A stretch of DNA of 64,000 nt from an uncultured Thermoleophilia bacterium (GCA_963799905.1 CAWCYU010000021.1:19628-83627); one strand, 5' to 3'; counted from the first letter of the stretch, positions 953 through 44,326 are shown. Numbers and translations: made by a program. The notes: generated by a model from the sequence alone, not told the origin.

Positions 953-974
953 CGTCCGCAGCTGGCCCTACCCT
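953..974 (+). promoter_or_regulatory. Putative PafBC-type (RecA-NDp-like) promoter of ruvC
   Basis: CGTCCG-N10-TACCCT, ending 5 nt before GTG 980. Confidence 0.65.
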
Positions 975-979
975 ACTCC

Positions 980-1469
980 GTGAAGGTTCTCGGCATCGAC
1001 CCAGGGACGGCTGCGTGCGGCTACGGGATCGTCCACGAAGGCGGCGGGCGGGTCACGGCACTGGCGTCAGGGTGTTGGACGACAAGCGCCCGCGCAACGG
1101 CCGGAACTGCGGCTGCGGGCGATCTTCGAGGGGGTGCAGGGGCTCATCGCCGAGCACGCACCGGACGCCGTCGCACTCGAGGAGTCGTATGTGGGAGCCG
1201 ACGCGCGCATCGCACTCTTCGTCGGTCAGGCTCGCGGCGCCGCCATGGTCGCCGCCGCCACCGCGGGCGTCGAGTGCACCGAATATGCGCCGGCACGCGT
1301 GAAGCAGTCCGTCTGCGGCCACGGCCGCGCCGACAAGGGTCAGGTGCAGCGGATGGTGAAGATGCTGCTCTCGCTCGACGAGATCCCCGCGACCTCGCAC
1401 GAGGCTGATGCGCTCGCGGTTGCGATCTGCCACGCGTTGATGCCCCCGCTCGCCCGGATGGCCTCGTGA
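980..1469 (+). CDS. ruvC: Holliday junction resolvase RuvC (frameshift near 1100)
   Basis: N-terminal VLGIDPG...CGYG, then ALEESY, GRADKGQVQRMV and HEADALAVAICH in the second frame. Confidence 0.95.
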
Positions 1470-2038
1470 TCGCGCGGCTGCGCGGAACGCCTGCGGGTCG
1501 CAGCGCGGACGGCCTCCTGCTGGACGTCAACGGCGTGGGCTACCTCGTCGCGGCGACGCCCGGCGTGATGCGGCGCGCCGAGGTGGGCGGCGAGATCAGC
1601 GTGGAGACGTTCCTCCACGTACGCGAGGATGCTCTGCAGCTCTACGGATTCGTCGATGCCTCGGAGCGCGAGCTCTTCACGCAGCTTCTCACGGTGAGCG
1701 GGATCGGCCCGAAGGTCGCGCTCGCGGTCGTCTCCGGGTCGCCCGCCGTCGGAGCTGCGACGCGCGATCGCCCTCGAGGATCACGCGCGGTTCCAGGCGA
1801 TCCCCGGGATCGGCAAGAAGACGGCGGAGCGCATCGTGCTGGAGCTGAAGGAGAAGGTCTCGCTCCTCGGCGACGACTCGATCGCGTCGCCGCCGAGGAG
1901 ACGCCCACGCATCTCGTCGCGCGCGATGCCCTGGTCGAGCTCGGCTATTCCGTGCTCGAGGCGGAACAGCGACTCGCCGAGGTCGACCCGGAGCTGCCGC
2001 CCGCCGAGCGCGTGCGGTTGGCCCTCCGGGCGGCGTAG
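1466..2038 (+). CDS. ruvA: Holliday junction branch-migration protein RuvA (two compensating frameshifts, near 1750 and 1890)
   Basis: [25 protein letters not shown] and [27 protein letters not shown] is in an alternate frame, then ALVELGYS. Confidence 0.95.
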
Positions 2039-2106
2039 CTCGAGGTGACCGGTCGCAGCCGAGCGATTGCCTGCCATTCGGCTCCGGGGTGCTCGAGTCG
2101 GCGGCC

Positions 2107-2128
2107 TGTCCGGGCGCGTGCCTAGGCT
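2107..2128 (+). promoter_or_regulatory. Putative PafBC-type promoter of ruvB
   Basis: TGTCCG-N10-TAGGCT, 5 nt before GTG 2134. Confidence 0.65.
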
Positions 2129-2133
2129 GTCTC

Positions 2134-3142
2134 GTGAGCGACCGCGTCACGACTGCCGTGCTGGACCCCGAGGACGAGGAGGTCGAGCGCTCGCTGCGCC
2201 CGCGCCGGCTCGACGATTTCGTCGGCCAGGAGCGCATCAAGGAACAGCTCGGGATCGCCCTCGACGCCGCCAAGGGACGCGACGAGGCGCTCGACCACGT
2301 GCTCCTCGCCGGGCCACCGGGCCTCGGCAAGACGACCCTCGCGCAGATCATCCGCGAGGAGCTCGGAGTCGGCCTCCGCACCGTCGCCGGGCCGGCGCTC
2401 GAGAAGAAGGACATCGCGGCCATCCTCACGGCGATCGAGCCGCGTGACGTGCTCTTCATCGACGAGATCCACCGTCTCAACCGCGCGGCCGAGGAGATCC
2501 TGTACCCGGCACTCGAGGATTTCCGGCTCGACATCGTGTTCGGGCAGGGGGCGGCTGCGCGCACGCTCACGATCGACCTGCCGCCGTTCACGCTCGTCGG
2601 TGCCACGCACACGTTCGGGCCTGCTGACGACGCCGCTGCGCGACCGTTTCGGGATGACCTTCCGGCTCGGGTACTACGAGCCGGGGCAGCTCGGCACGAT
2701 CGTGCGCCGTTCGGCGGGCATCCTCGCCGTCGAGATCGACGACGACGCCGCCGACGAGATCGCGAGCCGGTCGCGGGGAACGCCCAGGATCGCGAACCGG
2801 ATCCTGCGGCGCGTGCGCGATGTCGCCGAGGTACGCCACGCAGGGAAGATCACGAACGACGTCGCACGCGAAGCGCTGGAGCTGCTCGAGGTGGACGGCG
2901 TCGGGCTGGAGCGGATCGACCGGGAGCTGCTGTCGGCGGTCGCAAACAAGTTCGGCGGCGGCCCCGTCGGCCTCTCGACGCTCGCCGTCGCTCTCGGCGA
3001 GGAAACGGACACGATCGAGGATGTCTACGAGCCGTACCTGCTTCAGCTCGGTTTTCTTCAGCGCACCCCGCGCGGGCGGACGATCACAGAGCTCGGCCGC
3101 AAGCACGTCGGTGCCGTCCGCGTCGACGGGAGCCTGTTCTAG
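2134..3142 (+). CDS. ruvB: Holliday junction branch-migration ATPase RuvB (frameshift near 2610)
   Basis: [30 protein letters not shown] and LYPALEDF. The second frame has [22 protein letters not shown] and EPYLLQ...RTPRGR. Confidence 0.97.
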
Positions 3143-3165
3143 TGCCCGAGCTCTGGACGCCGGGG

Positions 3166-3468
3166 ATGACGGACTCGCTCGAAGACCTCGTGAAGCGCAT
3201 CGAGCGGAGGATCGAGGGCTTTCGTGCCGAGCACGGCCTGGAGCGCGCCGGCGTCAGCGTCGAGCTCGCCGACGGCTCACTCCACCGGCTCGCGTCCCTC
3301 TCGGCTGAACCGGGCTTCGGGTTCGTGACGCTCTGCCCACATCGCGACAGCGGCGAACCGGAGGAGCGGATCGTTCCGCTCGGGGCCATCCGCGAGATCC
3401 GGATCGCGGTTGCAGACGACGAGCAACGGCTCGGTTTCGCGCCGCCGCCGGACGGTTCTAGCGCCTGA
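3166..3468 (+). CDS. Hypothetical protein (100 aa)
   Basis: ATG 3166 gives [15 protein letters not shown]...; protein-like composition. The ORF track merges it with the ruvB frame-1 read-through. Confidence 0.7.
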
Positions 3469-4193: not shown

Positions 4194-4215
4194 CGTCCGG
4201 GGCTGGACCTATCGT
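4194..4215 (+). promoter_or_regulatory. Putative PafBC-type promoter of recJ
   Basis: CGTCCG-N10-TATCGT, 6 nt before ATG 4222. Confidence 0.65.
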
Positions 4216-4221
4216 GGCTGC

Positions 4222-6103
4222 ATGGTCGGAAGCTGGCAGGTCGAGCCCGTGTCGTTCCCCGAGGTCGCAGCCCTCATGGCGGAGCTCGACGTCTCCGAGA
4301 CCGTTGCGAGCGTGCTCGTGCGGCGAGGGCTGGGCGATCCCGACGCGGCGCGCGCGTTCCTCCAGCCCGAGGGCATCTCGCACGATCCCTTGTTGCTCGG
4401 GGACATGGCGGCGGCTGTCGCGCGGCTGCGCACGGCCGTCGAGCGGGGAGAGCGGATCTGCGTCCACGGCGACTACGACGTCGACGGCATCTGCGCTACG
4501 GCGCTCGCGACGCTGACGTTGAGAGAGCTCGGAGCCGACGTCGTCTGGCACCTCCCGAGCCGGTTCGAGGAAGGCTACGGCGTCTCCACGACGACGATCG
4601 CGCGGCTCGCGGAGGAAGGCGTGAAGCTTCTCCTCACGGTGGACTGCGGCATCACCGCCTCCGCAGAGGTCGAGGATGCCCGCCGGCTCGGTGTCGACGT
4701 GATCGTCACCGACCACCATCGCCCGGCGGAGACGCTGCCGCAGTGCCCGATCGTCGCCACGCGGCCCTCCGTCTATCCCTTTGCGGAGCTGTGCGGGACC
4801 GGTGTGGTCGTCAAGCTCGCGCAGGCGCTCCTCGGCGTCGACCACCCGATGCTCGCCCGCCATGCCGATCTCGTCGCCCTCGCCACGATCGCCGATGTCG
4901 TCCCGCTCGTCGACGAGAACCGTGCACTCGCGACGATCGGCCTCCGGGGTCTCGCGCGCACCCAGAAACCCGGGCTCCGCGCCCTGATGCGCGTGGCCGG
5001 TGTCGACCCCGCCACCGTCGACGCAACCGCAGTCGCGTTCCGGTTGGCCCCCAGGATCAACGCGGCCGGGCGCCTGGGGCGGCCCGACGTCGCACTGCAT
5101 CTCGTTCTCACCGATGACCCGCGCGAAGCAGATCTGCTCGCGAACGAGCTCGAGACGTTGAACCGCGACCGTCAGGCGGTCGAGGAGAAGATCGTGCGCG
5201 AGGCCGTCGCGGTTGTCGACGGCTGGTCTGCCCAGCAGCGCAGCCGCCGCGCCTACGTCGTCTGGGGTGAGGGCTGGCACGAGGGGGTGATCGGGATCGT
5301 CGCCTCGCGGCTCGTGGAGCGGTTCGGCCGTCCTGTCGTACTGATCGCCGGCGAGGGGGAGCGCTGGAAGGGCTCGGGGCGGTCGGTGCCGAGCTTCGAT
5401 CTGCATGCGGGCCTCTCCGCGTGCGCCGTCCACCTCGAGCGATTCGGCGGCCACCGTGCCGCCGCCGGCCTGTCGATCCTCCCAGACCGGCTGGAAGCGT
5501 TCGCGGATGCCTTCGCCACCCACGCCGACGCCGAGCTCGTCGACGAGGACCTCACGCCCGATGACGCGGATCGATGCGATCGTGCCCGCCTCGGCGCTCA
5601 CGCTCGACCTCGCCCGGGAGCTCGAGCGGCTCGCGCCCTTCGGGCTCGGGAACCCCGATGTGACGTTGCTCGTGGCGGGGTGCGAGGCCGTGGGACCGGC
5701 GACGGTCGGGGAAGGGAAGCACCTGAGGTTCCGGGTCCGCCAGCACGGCCGGGACGCCGGGAGTGCGATCGCCTTCGGTCTCGGCGGCCAGCTCCAGCGG
5801 CTACAGGGCGACGCGCGCTTCGACGTCGCGTTCAGGCTCAAGCAGAACCGCTGGAACGGCACGGTCGCCCCGCAACTCGTCGTGCGCCGCGTGTTCGATA
5901 CCTCAGCTGGATACGAGGAGCTACGGACGTGGCTGGCCGAGCTCTGGCGCGCCGGCGAGCCGGCGTGGACGCCGGAGGCTCGGCGGATCTTCGGCGAGCT
6001 CGCGCTCGAGGGCGCAGGCGGCAAGCGGCAGCTGCTCGAATCGCCCACGTTTCGGGCGTTGCTGGAACACGGCGTACCGCTCACCCTGCCTCGAGCCGCC
6101 TGA
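4222..6103 (+). CDS. recJ: Single-stranded-DNA exonuclease RecJ (frameshift near 5560)
   Basis: HGDYDVDG, TVDCG, TDHH, PRINAAGR, GSGRS and FGGHRAAAG. The C-terminal part (LAPFGLGNP, GEGKHL) is in the 5405..6103 frame. Confidence 0.96.
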
Positions 6104-6229
6104 GCTCTGAAGCCTGGGCTCGGGCGATCTGCCGGTGTCACGACAGTAGGCGCGCCTCGACGAACCAGAGCCGATGGGTGGGTCCCTCAACGCTGCCCCG
6201 TGCGCAGTCGCCCGTGCAACACCCGTGCC

Positions 6230-6337
6230 CTAGCGCGAGGTCGTGAAACCGCGCGGCGGCCGGGCGATCGACCGCTCGAGCTCGGCGAGCAGCCGCAGCA
6301 CCCTGCGACGTTCCAGATATCTCCGCAGCGGGCCCAT
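6230..6337 (-). CDS. Putative small basic protein (35 aa)
   Basis: MGPLRRYLERRRVLRLLAELERSIARPPRGFTTSR*, in the recJ-relA gap, with high GC3. It is below the ORF-track cutoff. Confidence 0.45.
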   Translation of the reverse strand: MGPLRRYLERRRVLRLLAELERSIARPPRGFTTSR

Positions 6338-8643: not shown

Positions 8644-9276
8644 TCAGACAGGCGAGCCCGGCAGACCGCGGATCGCGTCGAGGTCTGCGTCACCTTGCGA
8701 CCACTCGAGGCAACGCGGATCCAGCTCGAACGCCGCCCTGAGCGCGGCGATCGCCGCATCGGTGTTTCCGGCCATGGCCTCCCAGCACGCCGTCGAGTAG
8801 AGGAGGCCGCTGTTGTCGGGAAACCGCTCTGTGCCTTCGGCGAGCAGCTCGAGCGCCGCGTCGTAGTCGGCGCTCTCGCGGTGTCGCTCGGCCTCGAAAT
8901 ACCACTCCCAGGCCGACGGGGTATGAGCCCCCGGCACGCCGCCGATCGCGAGCACCGTCGTGCCCGCCTCCACTGCGACGGCGTGTCGGCGCACCGCGGG
9001 GTCGCGAATGAAGACCAACGTGCCGTTCGGGGCATCGAGCTCGACGCCGTCGAGCGTGAACGTGGCATGACCCGCCATCACCACGTAGGCCTCCTGGTGC
9101 CCCAGGCTCTCCTCGGTGTGCTCCTCGACGACGTGATCACCGGCGGCTGCGGCGCTGTAGGCGTTGATCCCGAATGCGTCGATCCCGAGGGCGCGCCGAA
9201 GCGGCGTCCAGCGGACGCCTGCGACCGCGATCTGATCGCTCTCGTGGATGTTCAGCACTGAGTAGGGCTCGGGCAC
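8644..9276 (-). CDS. Cupin-domain + TPR protein
   Basis: Cupin-like EHTE...HQEAYVVMAGHATF, and a C-terminal TPR (LYSTACWEA...AFELDP...DADL). Confidence 0.75.
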   Translation of the reverse strand: MPEPYSVLNIHESDQIAVAGVRWTPLRRALGIDAFGINAYSAAAAGDHVVEEHTEESLGHQEAYVVMAGHATFTLDGVELDAPNGTLVFIRDPAVRRHAVAVEAGTTVLAIGGVPGAHTPSAWEWYFEAERHRESADYDAALELLAEGTERFPDNSGLLYSTACWEAMAGNTDAAIAALRAAFELDPRCLEWSQGDADLDAIRGLPGSPV

Positions 9277-15789: not shown

Positions 15790-15811
15790 CGTCCGACCCC
15801 CTCCGTACGCT
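15790..15811 (+). promoter_or_regulatory. Putative PafBC-type promoter of the 78-aa gene
   Basis: CGTCCG-N10-TACGCT, 6 nt before ATG 15818. Confidence 0.6.
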
Positions 15812-15817
15812 TTGGTC

Positions 15818-16054
15818 ATGGATCAGCCGACCCGGATCGACCTGCTCGAGCTCGATATCGACCTCCGTCTCGCCGATCTCTGGCGCGAGGCAGCAGACGT
15901 CACCGAATGGAATCTCGAGGTCGTGTCGGCGTTCATGCGGGCTGCCTACGGGAAGGGCTACTGCGACGCCTTCACGGAGGACTCGCCGGGCTCGCTCTGC
16001 CATGATCACGGGTACGAGATTCCCGGGCGGCCGCAGTCCGTCCGTGCCGCCTGA
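15818..16054 (+). CDS. Hypothetical protein (78 aa)
   Basis: MDQPTRIDLLELDIDLRLADLW...FMRAAYGKGYCDA...LCHDHGY. The leaderless promoter motif directly upstream supports this start. Confidence 0.75.
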   Translation: MDQPTRIDLLELDIDLRLADLWREAADVTEWNLEVVSAFMRAAYGKGYCDAFTEDSPGSLCHDHGYEIPGRPQSVRAA

Positions 16055-20081: not shown

Positions 20082-20615
20082 CTACGCAGCGTCGGTCGCG
20101 GCCGCCGGAAGCGCCTCGGCCGGGATGTAGCGCAGATCTGGCAGCGCGCGCCAGCGTTCCTCGAGGCCGAGGCCGTAGCCGGCGAACAGCTCGTCCGGAA
20201 CGGTGAACCCGACGTAGCGCAGGCCGATGTTCTCGACCAGTCGTCGGTAGGGGCGATCGAGCAGCGTCACTGCAGCAATGCTCGCCGGGCCCCGCTCCGC
20301 CAGCGTCCGCGTCAGGTACGCGAGCGTCAGGCCCGTGTCGACGACATCCTCTACGAGCAGCACGTCGCGCCCGTCGATCGGCGTATCGAGGTCCTTGAGC
20401 AGCCGCACCCCGCCGCGCCCGCCGTCGGAGTAGCCCGCGAGCTCGACCACGTCGATCGCGTGCAGGATCGGCAATGCCCGCGACAGGTCTGCGAGAAAGA
20501 CCGTGCTCGACTTCAGCGGCGCGACGAGTAGCGGCTCGCGGCCTGCATAATCGGCGGCGATCTCCGCTCCGAGCTCGCGAACGCGCGCAGCGATCTCGGC
20601 GGCCGAGAGGTACAC
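20082..20615 (-). CDS. hpt: Hypoxanthine phosphoribosyltransferase-like protein (start uncertain)
   Basis: IAARVRELGAEIAADY, PRPP loop VLLVEDVVDTGLTL, and FAGYGLG...RALP. Confidence 0.85.
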   Translation of the reverse strand: MYLSAAEIAARVRELGAEIAADYAGREPLLVAPLKSSTVFLADLSRALPILHAIDVVELAGYSDGGRGGVRLLKDLDTPIDGRDVLLVEDVVDTGLTLAYLTRTLAERGPASIAAVTLLDRPYRRLVENIGLRYVGFTVPDELFAGYGLGLEERWRALPDLRYIPAEALPAAATDAA

Positions 20616-20635
20616 CGCTCCTGCCGGGTCGTGTC

Positions 20636-21004
20636 CTATGACGCGAGCTTCAGTCGGTATCGCTGGGCGAGGCGCTCGAGATCGCGCCGGTAGAAGAGCT
20701 TGACGTTGACCTCCGGGTACTGCTCTCGCAGCTCCCGCAACTTGCGGTTCTTCCGTGTCACGAGCGACTGCTTCATCACCGTCACCTCGATGTAGAGGTT
20801 TTCCTCCGGGAGGAAGAAATCCGGTGTGAAAGCACGAGTGACGCGGCCATCGGTGTCTCGCTCGAGCACGAACGAGGTCGGCTCGTACTCCCACGGGATC
20901 CCGTACCAGTCGAGGATCCTGGCGCACTCGAGCTCGATCCGGTTGGCGAACCGCGGCGGCTCTGCCCCGCGGTAGGCCTGGAACCGGTGGGATTCCGACC
21001 GCAC
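20636..21004 (-). CDS. Small PD-(D/E)XK-fold nuclease-like protein
   Basis: E...WEYEP...FTPDFFL...YIEVT pattern, as in T7 endonuclease I/TnsA-like folds. The Lys of ExK is replaced (EVT). Confidence 0.65.
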   Translation of the reverse strand: MRSESHRFQAYRGAEPPRFANRIELECARILDWYGIPWEYEPTSFVLERDTDGRVTRAFTPDFFLPEENLYIEVTVMKQSLVTRKNRKLRELREQYPEVNVKLFYRRDLERLAQRYRLKLAS

Positions 21005-21010
21005 GATTCA

Positions 21011-21032
21011 ACGGTACTCCCGCACTCGGACG
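21011..21032 (-). promoter_or_regulatory. Putative PafBC-type promoter of the nuclease-hpt operon
   Basis: The minus strand reads CGTCCG-AGTGCGGGAG-TACCGT, 6 nt before GTG 21004. Confidence 0.6.
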
Positions 21033-21080
21033 ACCCCTTCGATTCTTCACCGTCCGACGGCAGCGTCGTAGACTGCTGCC

Positions 21081-21890
21081 ATGTCGAACGGCGCCCGGTC
21101 AGTGTTGCGCATCGCTCACCTCTCCGACCTGCATTGCGGTGAGCAGTACTTCGAGCCGACCTTGCTCGAGCGGGCGATCAGCGAGATCAACGAGCTCGCC
21201 CCCGACATCGTCATCTGCTCGGGCGATCTGACGACGCTGGGTTTCAAGCACGAGTACAAGCTGGCTCGGCAGTACATCGACAAGATCCAGTGCGAATCCC
21301 TGGTCGTGATCCCCGGGAACCACGACTCGCGCAACGTCGGTTACGTGCACTTCGAGGAGCTGTTCGGCCAGCGCAACTCGGTGCTCCGCAAGAGCGGGGT
21401 CACCGTCGTGGCGGTGGACTCGACGGAGCCCGACCTCGATCACGGCCAGATCGGGCGCGGCCGCTACGCCTGGATCGAGCGCGAGTTCGCCGCCGAGCCG
21501 GCCGACCTGAAGATCTTCGTTCTCCACCATCATCTGCTGCCCGTGCCGGGAACCGGCCGCGAGCGCAACGTCGTGTACGACGCCGGCGACGTGATCGAAT
21601 GCCTGCTTCGAGCCGGGGTGCAGCTCGTTCTCTCGGGCCACAAGCACGTCCCGTACGCGTGGCGGCTCGAAAACCTGTTCGTCGTCAACACCGGCACGGT
21701 TTCCTCGCTGCGTTTGCGGGGGAATACGAGACCCTGTTACAACGTGATCGAGATAACGGGGAGCCACGTCGACGTCTGGCGCCACCACCCGTTTCACGGC
21801 GAGGAGCGCATCATCCAGTTCTCGACCGACACCTTCGAATACGAGAAGTACACCGGGCGGATCGAGTCCGAGGTGACGTCGCGCTCGTGA
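21081..21890 (+). CDS. Calcineurin-like metallophosphoesterase (CpdA/Icc-like)
   Basis: HLSDLH, SGDLT, PGNHD, HHH and GHKH motifs. TAGACT -10 lies 6 nt before the ATG. Confidence 0.92.
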   Translation: MSNGARSVLRIAHLSDLHCGEQYFEPTLLERAISEINELAPDIVICSGDLTTLGFKHEYKLARQYIDKIQCESLVVIPGNHDSRNVGYVHFEELFGQRNSVLRKSGVTVVAVDSTEPDLDHGQIGRGRYAWIEREFAAEPADLKIFVLHHHLLPVPGTGRERNVVYDAGDVIECLLRAGVQLVLSGHKHVPYAWRLENLFVVNTGTVSSLRLRGNTRPCYNVIEITGSHVDVWRHHPFHGEERIIQFSTDTFEYEKYTGRIESEVTSRS

Positions 21891-41701: not shown

Positions 41702-42330
41702 CGGCCGTCGATCGGCTCGCCGTGCTTGCGCACGAGCTCAGGAGCCCCGTCTCCGCGCTGGCGGCGATCCGCGAGGCCTACGTCGAAGGGGACGACGAGA
41801 GGAGACGGCGGCTGCTCGAGCTGGCAGGCGTCGCAGTGGCGAGCATCGAACGGCTCATCGCCGACGCGACGCTGCCCTCGCTTCGCCTCGAACGCCTCGA
41901 CGTCGGCCGACTCGCGGTCGAGGTCGTGGAAACAGCGGCACTCGGACGAGCGGGCGTCGTCGCAGAGGTCGAGGACGGGCTCGGGGTGGACGGTGACGGG
42001 GACCGGCTACGGCAGGCGCTGGCGAACCTGATCGCGAACGCGGTGGGTCATTCGCCTCCCGGAACCACCGTGCGCGTGTCGGCGAGGGGCCGCGGTGCCC
42101 TCGTCGTGCTCGCGGTCGCGGACGAGGGGGAGGGAATCGCAGCCGCCGATATCGCGCGCGTATTCGAGCCCGGGGTGCGGCTCACCGAGGCCCGACCGGG
42201 TTCGGGGCTGGGGCTCGCACTGGTGCGAACGATCGCCATGGAGCACGGGGGAGAGGTCGAGGTGGAGTCGAGCCCGGGCCGGGGGGCGACGTTCAGGCTC
42301 GTGCTGCCGGCCGCTTCCGGCGTGGGCTGA
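41698..42330 (+). CDS. Sensor-less histidine kinase (HisKA + HATPase)
   Basis: AHELRSP begins at residue 11; NLIANA, DEGEGI and GSGLGL follow. No TM or sensor domain. Confidence 0.85.
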   Translation: MTAVDRLAVLAHELRSPVSALAAIREAYVEGDDERRRRLLELAGVAVASIERLIADATLPSLRLERLDVGRLAVEVVETAALGRAGVVAEVEDGLGVDGDGDRLRQALANLIANAVGHSPPGTTVRVSARGRGALVVLAVADEGEGIAAADIARVFEPGVRLTEARPGSGLGLALVRTIAMEHGGEVEVESSPGRGATFRLVLPAASGVG

Positions 42331-44326
42331 GACCCAGCTCCGTCTGGAGCTCGCGGGCTCTCCGCGCGACGGCGGCCCGCATGTCGGCCGGTTCCAGGAC
42401 CACGGTCTCGCCCGCATCGGCGAGCACCTCGGACAGCAGCCACTCGTCCGTCTTGAACGGCAGCTCGGAGAGCGCTGCCTTGTCGGTCAGCCCTCGGGCG
42501 CCGCGCTCGATCTTCCAGCGGGCGACAATCGGCGAGTGCCACAGCCGGGCCAGGCGCGGCTCGGTGAGATAGCGCGGATCGAAGCCGACGCGCGGCTCGA
42601 AGGCCTCGGCAGTGAGCCGTGCCGACCGCATCCTGTCGAGCCGGTAGGTGCGCGGGCCGTCCGCCGTGCGATCCCAGGTGTGCACGCGCCACACGGGCAG
42701 CTCACGCTCGAAGGAGTACGGCTCGACCGACCTCGTCGTCGGCTGTTCGTCCCCTTCCTTGAGGTATTCGATCTCGACGACGCGCCGCTTCTCGACGGCG
42801 TCGGAGAGCGTCCGAACGAGCTCCTCCTCGGCGTCGACGACGTTGCCCGTCGGCGTGTGAGGAAGGTCGAACTGCCCGAACGTCTCCTCGAGCTTCTTGC
42901 GCACCCGATCGAGCGGCGTGTGGGCCTCCGCCGCGATGGTCGGCCCGACGTAGTCGATCGCGAGGCGAATCGCGCGCGCCTCGAGAGGCGTCAGCTTCGG
43001 AGGCCTCCGAAACACGTCTCCGTAGAGCTCCTTGTCGACACGCACGACTCCCTCGTCCTCGTCGACCTCGGCGTACACGGTGTAGCACCCGCCTCCGAAA
43101 TTGACCAGGTTCAGCAGTGAGAGCGTGTCCTGGAGCTCCTCCCTCGGGATCGAGAAGCGCGCAGCGAGCTCATCGGCGTCGAGTCGTGCGTCGCGACCCT
43201 CACCGCAGGCGGACAGAACATGCGCGAGGAGCGCCTGGAGCACGCCGAACCGCTCGGGCGCTATCGGCCCGACGGGTCGGTCTCCCCGATCGACGGACGC
43301 GTCGACGCGCCGCTCGCGCGCAGGCGCCGGGCTGTCGCCGTCGTGGGCTTCGCGCAGACGGGCGAGCCCGTCGGCAACCCCCTGGCGGAGAGTCTTGGGC
43401 TCGAGTGGGATCGCACGGCCGTTCTGCCGCAGCACCCAGCCGACGAGCGGCTCGATGCGAGCGAAGTTCGTCTCGAAGACGCCGTCGGTCAGCGTGCCGG
43501 CGTCGGAGAGCGTTCGGTGCACCCACCAGGCAGTGTCGCCCTGCACCTCGATCCGGGCCGTGCCGACGACGTCGCCGATCTGCCAGGGCCGCGGGACGCG
43601 GTGCGCCTCGACGTCGAACTCCGGCGGGAGGCGGAAATCCCGCTCGCGGCGGGTGGCGAAGCGGATGTCGCTGCGGATCCGGGACACCCGAAACGTGCGG
43701 ACGGCAGCACGGTCGAGATCCTGGCCGACGACGTACCAGATCCCCTCGTCGAGCCGCAGGGCATACGGGTTGAGCGTGCGCTCGGTCACCTTGTCGCGCT
43801 GAGGAGACCAGTACGCGAACTTGATCGTGCGTTGCTTCGAGATCGCCGACTCCAGCTTCGAGAGCCGCCCTGCCAGCTCGGGTGAATAGTCCGGAGCGCT
43901 GACCCGGACACGCTCCTCGGTGTCGGTGCGTGCCTCGGAGAAACCAGGACGGCCGAGCGCGAGGTTCTGTAGCGCGAGGCGCAGCGGCTCGGCGTACGCG
44001 AACTTGCCGTCGAGGTAGAACAACGCCGTCTGGAGGGCCGCGAGCTCGTCGTCCTTGAGGTCGAGGCGATCGAGGAAATAGTTCTCGGAACGAAGGGTGT
44101 AGAGCTCTTCTCCCGTGAACTCGTCGCGCTGGGAATGGAGCGGTACACCGAGCCCGGTCAGCTCGGCGCGGTCGGAGTAGAAGCGTCGCGCGAACGCCTC
44201 GTCCGACATCTCGGAGTAGCCCTCGACGTTCCCTTTCACGTCTCTCGCGGTCAGCGGCCGACGCTCGGCCATCAGGAAGGCTACGAGCGAGAGTTGACGG
44301 ATGAGCTTGTCGGTGTCGTGCGACAT
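42293..44326 (-). CDS. pafBC: Fused PafBC-like transcriptional activator (2x HTH-WYL-WCX)
   Basis: AFARRFYSDRAELTGLGVP (PafB HTH), WYVVG...RTFRVSRI, then LTPLEARA and RTYRLDRM (PafC half). Confidence 0.88.
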   Translation of the reverse strand: MSHDTDKLIRQLSLVAFLMAERRPLTARDVKGNVEGYSEMSDEAFARRFYSDRAELTGLGVPLHSQRDEFTGEELYTLRSENYFLDRLDLKDDELAALQTALFYLDGKFAYAEPLRLALQNLALGRPGFSEARTDTEERVRVSAPDYSPELAGRLSKLESAISKQRTIKFAYWSPQRDKVTERTLNPYALRLDEGIWYVVGQDLDRAAVRTFRVSRIRSDIRFATRRERDFRLPPEFDVEAHRVPRPWQIGDVVGTARIEVQGDTAWWVHRTLSDAGTLTDGVFETNFARIEPLVGWVLRQNGRAIPLEPKTLRQGVADGLARLREAHDGDSPAPARERRVDASVDRGDRPVGPIAPERFGVLQALLAHVLSACGEGRDARLDADELAARFSIPREELQDTLSLLNLVNFGGGCYTVYAEVDEDEGVVRVDKELYGDVFRRPPKLTPLEARAIRLAIDYVGPTIAAEAHTPLDRVRKKLEETFGQFDLPHTPTGNVVDAEEELVRTLSDAVEKRRVVEIEYLKEGDEQPTTRSVEPYSFERELPVWRVHTWDRTADGPRTYRLDRMRSARLTAEAFEPRVGFDPRYLTEPRLARLWHSPIVARWKIERGARGLTDKAALSELPFKTDEWLLSEVLADAGETVVLEPADMRAAVARRARELQTELGLSPRRKRPAARA

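Follow-up and report, generated by a model that had tools for sequence, protein, structure and literature searches.

A T7-endonuclease-I-like protein partnered with a second hypoxanthine phosphoribosyltransferase-type protein, and its predicted DNA-damage promoter in relatives of Gaiella

Why should a small protein that resembles a phage nuclease be encoded directly ahead of an enzyme of the purine-salvage type, behind what looks like a DNA-damage promoter? The question is raised by a locus in a 64,000-nucleotide stretch of DNA (GCA_963799905.1 CAWCYU010000021.1:19628-83627; "the window" hereafter), which is taken from contig C21 of a metagenome-assembled genome of an uncultured Thermoleophilia bacterium (3.57 Mb, 69% G+C, 78% complete) whose nearest relatives are soil Gaiella/Gaiellales genomes of the same class. 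A first-pass annotation of the window had described a 122-residue protein carrying the motifs WEYEP, FTPDF and YIEVT, encoded immediately upstream of a gene similar to those for hypoxanthine phosphoribosyltransferase (HPRT) and preceded by an exact CGTCCG-N10-TAnnnT motif, and had proposed an uncharacterised damage-induced module that couples nucleic-acid cleavage or binding to purine salvage or to the handling of damaged bases; alternatively, the phosphoribosyltransferase (PRTase) might be a nucleotide sensor. We found the observation itself to be correct in all of its parts, and the interpretation to be partly supported. The elements of the locus are the following.

20636-21004, minus strand: the small gene, with a GTG start; 122 amino acids, T7-endonuclease-I-like, carrying WEYEP, FTPDF and YIEVT
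20082-20639, minus strand: the gene for the HPRT-like paralogue, its frame beginning at an AUA that overlaps the UAG of the small gene (20639-20637), with an alternative GTG at 20615
21011-21032, minus strand: a promoter of the PafBC/RecA-NDp type, with CGTCCG at 21032-21027, a 10-nt spacer and the -10 element TACCGT at 21016-21011

The answer that we favour, with a probability of roughly one half, is that the small protein would bind or cleave particular DNA structures in a complex with a PRTase subunit that binds purine nucleotides, and that in the Gaiellales this complex might have come under the control of the DNA-damage response.

The small protein and its constant partner

Sequence profiles, solved structures and structural models all relate the small protein to endonuclease I of phage T7, and in this form they bear out the restriction-endonuclease-type fold that had been suspected for it. 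In the PHROG collection it matches families of Holliday junction resolvases and endonucleases with E-values of about 1e-7 (1.8e-7 for the resolvase), and the solved T7 endonuclease I structures 3CAE, 2PFJ and 1M0D match it with E-values between 9e-5 and 7e-3. In the alignment to these structures, the counterparts of E24, D62 and E73 are the catalytic T7 endonuclease I residues E20, D55 and E65, and T75 is aligned with the catalytic K67 (2PFJ, which has Ala at this place, aligned alike). An AlphaFold2 model of the protein, with a mean predicted local distance difference test (pLDDT) value of 88.6, consists of a helix at residues 22-33, five strands, a helix at 83-95, a strand at 101-105 and a helix at 106-115; as modelled, its core holds to the alpha-beta-beta-beta-alpha-beta arrangement of the PD-(D/E)XK-type (restriction-endonuclease-like) proteins. 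A Foldseek search of BFVD with this model gave 30 matches to viral models at E<=1e-3, under the names endonuclease I, DUF559 or (Holliday junction) resolvase. The matches in the PDB were weak (best E-value 0.02), probably as a consequence of the domain swap in T7 endonuclease I crystals, and all of them were PD-(D/E)XK nucleases. The family to which the small protein belongs comprises 1653 clusters at 50% identity; none of its matches to Pfam or NCBIfam families passed the threshold, and PF05367 (Phage_endo_I) was matched at E<=0.001 by 5 of the 45 long representatives that were scanned.

An alignment of 63 diverse unfused members of the family shows no variation at P61, D62, F63, E73, T75, K85 and K88 and has E24 in at least 90% of them, the same residues are conserved in members that are fused to other domains, and the Thr is invariant in four separate alignments. 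The family also shares an invariant basic helix, TRKNRK, and the small gene is under strong constraint, with a ratio of nonsynonymous to synonymous substitution rates (dN/dS) of 0.10. That the acidic triad is invariant suggests that metal binding has been kept. Since the catalytic Lys of the T7 endonuclease I family is replaced by an invariant Thr, homology does not by itself establish a nuclease activity. Thus, of the proposal that the protein cleaves or binds nucleic acid, the nuclease-type fold stands, and cleavage is put in doubt by the substitution. Active nucleases with other residues at the position of the catalytic Lys do exist, BamHI and BglII being examples.

The pairing with an HPRT-type protein is conserved as well. 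Our comparison set for the Gaiellales consisted of 80 loci (L006-L085), and in 77 of them the next gene downstream of the small gene is HPRT-like; the contigs of the other three end at that point. When 401 Actinomycetota genomes were sampled with a profile of the small protein, 191 of them, streamlined genomes of 1.3 Mb among these, gave one copy, and its presence follows whole families, which are either all positive or all negative. The tally of 401 takes in 12 unpublished genomes (G148, G343, G088, G174, G336, G239, G226, G001, G018, G048, G120 and G268), and the conclusions are the same without them. Of 27 loci from other families of the Actinomycetota, 14 have an HPRT gene as the next gene downstream of the small gene and eight have one about 1.3 kb upstream (22 of 27 together), L122 from the unpublished genome G148 being one of the eight. 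In the two loci of the upstream type that were read through, and in a third with the HPRT gene about 1.8 kb upstream, genes for a bifunctional-nuclease-like protein and a MerR protein lie between the two partners and gcvP follows.

The gene order in L116, L124 and L129 is a DUF151-type bifunctional-nuclease-like gene, a MerR regulator, the small gene and glycine dehydrogenase, and an HPRT gene lies ahead of this cluster in L116 and in the genome of L124. We take the cluster to resemble the Rv1828-Rv1832 region of mycobacteria.

The genomes that carry the small gene also tend to carry an additional HPRT. Two full-scoring HPRTs were found in each of ten genomes from ten families with the small gene, and in all eight of these for which the position of the small gene was listed an HPRT gene lies within about 3.5 kb of it; of five genomes of the same classes that lack the small gene, one has no HPRT and the others have a single one, a co-occurrence that is only descriptive because relatives are not independent samples. 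The genome examined here also has two, namely the HPRT-like paralogue, which scores below the family cut-off, and a canonical hpt gene of the kind that the first-pass annotation had suggested looking for.

Natural fusions of the two kinds of protein extend the pairing beyond the Actinomycetota. In the Chloroflexota an endonuclease-I-like N-terminus is joined to a canonical HPRT domain (PF00156), as in MCH7983547.1, and elsewhere the endonuclease-I-like domain is joined to degenerate PRTase domains; these proteins are annotated merely as "hypoxanthine phosphoribosyltransferase". In the Bryobacterales (Acidobacteriota) the endonuclease-I-like domain forms the C-terminus of a protein that begins with a cytidylate-kinase-like domain (PF13189), and in 34 of 47 metagenome loci on Acidobacteriota-like contigs such a fusion is followed, within about 30 nt, by the gene for a 182-residue HPRT, all 34 of these HPRTs having LLDR and keeping GLD. 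The E/D/E/T residues of the endonuclease-I-like domain are invariant in 34 of 34 fusions to PRTase domains. The PRTase parts of the same 34 proteins have Lys replaced by Arg in 20, Asp by Gly in 15 and DTG by STG in 17, with the Gly of the phosphate loop invariant, and the kinase-like domains of the PF13189 fusions are without the P-loop lysine and have few invariant positions. Since the endonuclease-I residues are invariant and the nucleotide-binding partners are variable and often without catalytic residues, we regard the endonuclease-I-like domain as the constrained element of the partnership. An AlphaFold2 model of one natural fusion has a predicted template-modelling score (pTM) of 0.77, which is compatible with a fixed interdomain arrangement.

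The partnership, adjacent or fused, recurs in at least three bacterial phyla; the pair is conserved in the Gaiellales and in other families of the Actinomycetota, and it occurs as fusions. Conservation, fusion and co-occurrence rule out chance adjacency, and the pairing with a second HPRT amounts to evidence of the Rosetta-stone type for a functional complex.

In 14 of the metagenome loci (contigs L153-L232) a small response-regulator-like protein is also encoded downstream of the kinase-like fusion.

The HPRT-like protein and the junction between the two genes

The HPRT-like protein scores 132.5 bits against TIGR01203, the cut-off for which is 150, in comparison with 217 bits for the canonical hpt of the same genome (G000:C7:93119-93613), which lies in a tilS-hpt-ftsH arrangement. 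It nevertheless aligns from end to end with solved hypoxanthine-guanine phosphoribosyltransferases (E-value 1e-37), and its loop for phosphoribosyl pyrophosphate (PRPP) and the 5'-phosphate is intact: it reads VEDVVDTG, and VLLVEDVVDTGLT aligns with the PRPP-binding motif of the solved enzymes. The divergence noticed earlier, LKSS for LKG and AGY for the SY loop (SSY), is real in the alignments with the canonical copy and the solved enzymes, in which the protein also has LLDR for LLDK and GLGL for GLD(Y/F); all four substitutions are conserved in the Gaiellales orthologues. We consider the changes of LLDK to LLDR and of GYGLD(Y/F) to GYGLGL more telling than the first two. In human HPRT K165 contacts the O6 of the purine and D193 holds the Mg-pyrophosphate; by the roles of these two residues, LLDR and GLGL give the Gaiellales protein an Arg at the purine-contacting Lys and a Gly at the Mg/pyrophosphate Asp. 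A dN/dS of 0.13 indicates strong purifying selection on the gene. A tree of HPRTs, intended to see whether the partner HPRTs make up a single clade, did not resolve at its base, and only signatures that they share in sequence (xxRR[IL]V) suggest a common origin.

The two genes meet at an unusual junction. The HPRT-like reading frame is open from 21050, and the conserved protein begins only just past the TAG of the small gene. Among 77 orthologues there are 70 whose HPRT frame opens one base before the stop codon of the small gene. The junction is GTGA (a GTG start over a TGA stop) in 30 loci, ATAG in 24, GTAG followed by TG in 18 (in most of which a GTG start follows directly), CTAG in three and ATAA in one. 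The ATAG group, which includes the window and its closest relatives, has no conserved canonical start; ten ATAG loci have no in-frame ATG, GTG or TTG upstream of the conserved VYL codon back to the next stop. In roughly half of the closest relatives GTC or ATC stands at the position of the GTG at 20615, and this codon was ruled out as a general start of the HPRT-like protein, since it is GTC, ATC or CTC in 50 of 78 orthologues. The length of the spacer differs among orthologues by multiples of three, and 25 of 28 loci have the rare TCA directly before the stop of the small gene, just 6% of the codons in these genes ending in A. The simplest reading is that ribosomes re-initiate at the AUA after terminating on the small gene. 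A fusion by programmed -1 frameshifting, for which the HPRT frame would be in the proper register relative to the small gene, was also considered and not adopted, inspection by eye of the 3' end of the small gene showing no slippery heptamer. The pair is a single, translationally coupled operon of the leaderless type, and its second gene offers a natural test case for the translation of a conserved gene that is without a canonical start codon.

Contigs from metatranscriptome libraries agree with this organisation to the extent that such data allow. Exact contigs end at 21004 and at 21081, both of them start codons, with 21025-21065 uncovered, and a contig of 271 nt (20589-20859) bridges the junction between the two genes. 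Contigs of this kind show presence in RNA libraries only, and the leaderless starts and co-transcription that they indicate are for this reason a weak hint. Much of the HPRT-like gene is not covered by these contigs, from which we draw no conclusion.

The gene that begins at 21081 is divergent from the pair and heads a cyclic-2,3-diphosphoglycerate operon; its own -10 element, TAGACT, lies 6 nt before the ATG. Two promoters of the leaderless type thus stand back to back within 76 bp (21005-21080). An additional CGTCCG occurs on the plus strand at 21051-21056, at a distance of 12 nt, rather than 10, from the TAGACT of this phosphoesterase gene.

The promoter and a predicted damage regulon

The exact CGTCCG-N10-TAnnnT motif reported for the unit was confirmed at 21011-21032 on the minus strand, where the sequence 5' of the small gene reads CGTCCG-agtgcgggag-TACCGT-tgaatc-GTG. 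The start codon lies 6 nt past the -10 element, which to judge from the sequence is the geometry of a leaderless transcript, and a GTC triplet is located 12 nt upstream of TACCGT, at -27 to -25 relative to the GTG at 21004. The same motif occurs at three other places in the window, which also encodes a regulator of the PafBC type.

953-974, plus strand: CGTCCG-N10-TAnnnT motif before ruvC(AB), the ruvC frame being broken in this assembly
4194-4215, plus strand: CGTCCG-N10-TAnnnT motif, from the motif search, before a RecJ-like DHH/DHHA1 protein (4222-6243)
15790-15811, plus strand: CGTCCG-N10-TAnnnT motif, from the motif search, before a 78-residue protein (15818-16051) with no family match
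42293-44326, minus strand: a fused PafBC-type regulator of 677 amino acids, with two WYL domains, a PafC helix-turn-helix (HTH) domain and a WCX domain

These four copies compare with 0.21 expected in the window. In the genome as a whole the motif was found 24 times at a spacing of 10, versus 0-6 times at each other spacing from 6 to 15, and at 13 of the 24 sites an open reading frame (ORF) begins 5-9 nt past the -10 element. Among the genes behind it are ruvC(AB), the gene for the RecJ-like DHH protein, radA, rmuC, lexA, the class II ribonucleotide reductase gene nrdJ and a gene for a ParA-ParB fusion. Upstream of recA (G000:C2 ~9100-9250, L140) a variant motif, CGTCAC-N10-TAGCCT, is followed by an SOS-like box, GAAC-N4-GTTT (GAACATATGTTT), a two-promoter layout in which this recA resembles that of the mycobacteria. 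The exact motif stands 5' of the small gene in 73 of the 80 Gaiellales loci, or in 77 if GTCNG is allowed, between variable flanks. The expectation that orthologues would share the motif was therefore borne out, and the set of DNA-repair genes that it marks has the promoter geometry of PafBC targets.

The RecA-independent promoter of mycobacteria is tTGTCRgtg-N8-TAnnnT (PMC5656591), and PafBC reads the GTC triplet of its "-26 element" in combination with a normal -10 element and without a -35 element (PMC8635444); natural PafBC fusions have also been described (PMC6789036). By comparison with this system a PafBC-type promoter ahead of the small gene is well supported on sequence grounds, and the fused PafBC encoded at 42293-44326 is its probable activator. 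Such comparisons yield a sequence-level prediction of a PafBC damage gene set in a deep-branching and almost uncultured order of actinobacteria.

The damage-type promoter was seen at the small gene in Gaiella-type relatives only, and the partnership reaches much further. Because the pairing spans at least three phyla and the promoter was seen in this group alone, we regard damage induction as a lineage-specific overlay and not as the core of the module. Of the proposal that the module is damage-induced, what stands is the promoter in the Gaiella-type relatives; as a description of the module itself it does not hold.

Several other features of this gene set deserve mention. The gene for the fused PafBC shares the window with four copies of its predicted promoter motif. 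The ruvC, ruvA and ruvB frames (980-3468, plus strand) each appear to be frameshifted in this assembly, possibly by assembly indels; in ruvC the N-terminus lies in one frame (980 to about 1130) and the remainder in another (1134-1469). The ParA-ParB fusion (L088, G000:C3:62386-63870) is a ParA-type ATPase of 495 residues joined to ParB N-terminal and HTH domains, and it starts 6 nt past an exact motif. Five leaderless ORFs that are preceded by the motif have no Pfam match (L090, L095, L097, L093 and L094, of 587, 248, 206, 138 and 77 amino acids, respectively) and are candidate members of the damage regulon.

What the pair might do, and how it compares with known systems

In the reading that we favour, the endonuclease-I-like protein and the HPRT-like protein would form a complex, as their adjacency, fusion and co-occurrence lead one to expect. 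The endonuclease-I-like protein, putatively a dimer, would bind and might possibly cut branched or damaged DNA, and the subunit with the PRTase fold would be the one to bind PRPP, (p)ppGpp or a purine nucleotide. Its role might include catalysis in the lineages with canonical HPRTs and might be one of sensing or regulation in the Gaiellales and in most of the fusions. In the Gaiellales, the module would be switched on by PafBC after DNA damage, alongside ruvC, recJ, radA, rmuC, lexA and nrdJ. A more specific mechanism, in which the PRTase-fold subunit gates or chemically assists the structure-specific DNA-binding or nuclease subunit according to the status of purine nucleotides, PRPP or (p)ppGpp, is offered as a speculation, and we think it rather unlikely in that particular form. 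The idea of the PRTase as a nucleotide sensor nevertheless fits the data better than the other proposals of the first-pass annotation, given that most of the PRTase domains in fusions are without catalytic residues and keep the phosphate loop; it also fits the degenerate kinase-like domain that is fused to the endonuclease-I-like domain. If this picture is correct, it would tie DNA repair or recombination directly to the condition of the nucleotide pool, and would add a previously unrecognised DNA-processing complex to the repertoire of several phyla.

A number of observations weigh against the favoured reading. The Pfam match of the small protein to Phage_endo_I (PF05367) reaches 23.2 bits (E-value 5.8e-5), below the gathering score of 29.1. 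With the catalytic Lys missing, the small protein may do no more than bind DNA, or DNA may not even be its target, and for every member of its family the nuclease or DNA-binding function is a prediction from sequence. The complex is deduced only from adjacency, fusion, co-occurrence and the pTM of a single fusion. The partner HPRT looks fully catalytic in many lineages, which fits plain purine salvage equally with sensing. Finally, no damage-type motif was found upstream of the small-gene homologue in the 27 loci of other Actinomycetota families, and for the operon in the window damage induction is likewise only a prediction from its sequence.

The main competitor of the favoured reading is that the pair is purely a purine-salvage isozyme, in which the small protein would be a non-nucleolytic accessory subunit of the second HPRT, acting for example in oligomerisation or regulation, and the damage-type promoter would provide extra nucleotide supply during repair, as it might for nrdJ. 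We judge this to be rather unlikely and take it seriously, since most lineages have a partner HPRT with intact catalytic residues and a score over the family cut-off, the endonuclease-I-like protein lacks the catalytic Lys, nrdJ stands behind the same motif, and the other domain found in fusions, PF13189, is also of a nucleotide-metabolism type. It does not account well for the endonuclease-I-like domain being the most conserved part, with its metal triad and basic helix, while the PRTase and kinase-like domains decay around it, nor for the loss of the Mg/pyrophosphate Asp from the Gaiellales HPRT-like protein.

It is clearly less probable that the small protein is an active structure-specific nuclease or junction resolvase that functions independently of the HPRT, their adjacency reflecting shared transcription only. 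The homology to T7 endonuclease I and the phage resolvases and the promoter motif in common with ruvC, recJ and radA would be as expected for such an enzyme, but the strict association with a second HPRT in three phyla, as a neighbour, in fusions and by co-occurrence, the obligatory translational coupling and the replacement of Lys by Thr at the catalytic position would not. We give slightly less credence again to the handling of damaged bases, by which purines that are damaged or non-canonical, and are released or exposed in the course of repair, would be the substrates of the variant HPRT, and the nuclease-like protein would direct this HPRT to lesions. The Arg in place of the purine-contacting Lys in the partner subfamily and the damage-type promoter of the Gaiellales could be cited for it; against it, the Gaiellales protein lacks the Asp needed for Mg/pyrophosphate chemistry, the link to the promoter is lineage-specific, and nothing in the analysis points to damaged bases. 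A ligand-activated nuclease of the defence or toxin type, with a nucleotide sensor domain and a PD-(D/E)XK effector as in Can2/Card1, would match the architecture of a sensor plus a nuclease fold (Can2 is among the weak Foldseek matches) but is very improbable for a single-copy core gene in a fixed syntenic place in 191 of 401 Actinomycetota genomes, those of 1.3 Mb included, which is under strong purifying selection and gives no significant PADLOC match.

A DNA-structure-binding protein in complex with a nucleotide-binding PRTase thus remains our preferred reading. Both folds and the promoter type are known already. What is new, as far as our literature search shows, is the family with the invariant Thr, the partnership of this family with a second HPRT in more than one phylum and the fact that a PafBC-type regulon has recruited it; the search found no paper on a pairing of endonuclease I with HPRT, and to our knowledge the pair is not among the described targets of PafBC.

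Comparison with the systems that these components resemble might help to define what is distinctive about the pair. About 90 residues of the small protein align with T7 endonuclease I (gp3; 1M0D, 2PFJ, 3CAE; PF05367), including FEYE/WEYE, YTPDF/FTPDF, a strand of the VE.. type and a helix with REQ(H/Y)PE, and the acidic residues corresponding to E20, D55 and E65 are kept. T7 endonuclease I differs in having K67 at the position of the invariant Thr; it is encoded by a phage gene, whereas the small gene is a cellular, single-copy core gene, and the small protein is always partnered with a protein of the HPRT type. The partner, for its part, is homologous over its full length to the bacterial HPRTs (TIGR01203; 3ACB, 1R3U) and keeps VEDVVDTGLT and the loop tyrosine, but it is a second paralogue that falls below the family cut-off and carries LLDR, GLGL and AGY, and its gene is translationally coupled to that of the endonuclease-I-like protein and, in the closest relatives, is without a conserved canonical start. 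The promoter shares with the PafBC/RecA-NDp promoter of mycobacteria the GTC located 12 nt upstream of a TAnnnT -10 element (PMC5656591, PMC8635444), and the two systems have in common the DNA-repair genes in the downstream set and the presence of a PafBC-type regulator; they differ in the consensus, which is CGTCCG here and not TGTCRG, in the regulator, which is a natural fusion here, and in the leaderless nature of most of the targets here.

For the proposed role of the partner, the nearest precedents are PurR and PyrR of Bacillus subtilis, which are sensors of PRPP or nucleotides with the PRTase fold. In these proteins a PRTase fold with lost or reduced catalysis reports the levels of PRPP or nucleotides to a nucleic-acid-binding function, a pattern that the degenerate PRTase domains of most of the fusions fit. 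The pair described here differs from them in that the partner of the PRTase is a domain with a nuclease fold rather than an HTH or an RNA-binding surface, and in that the closest sequence relatives of the PRTase itself are the HPRTs.

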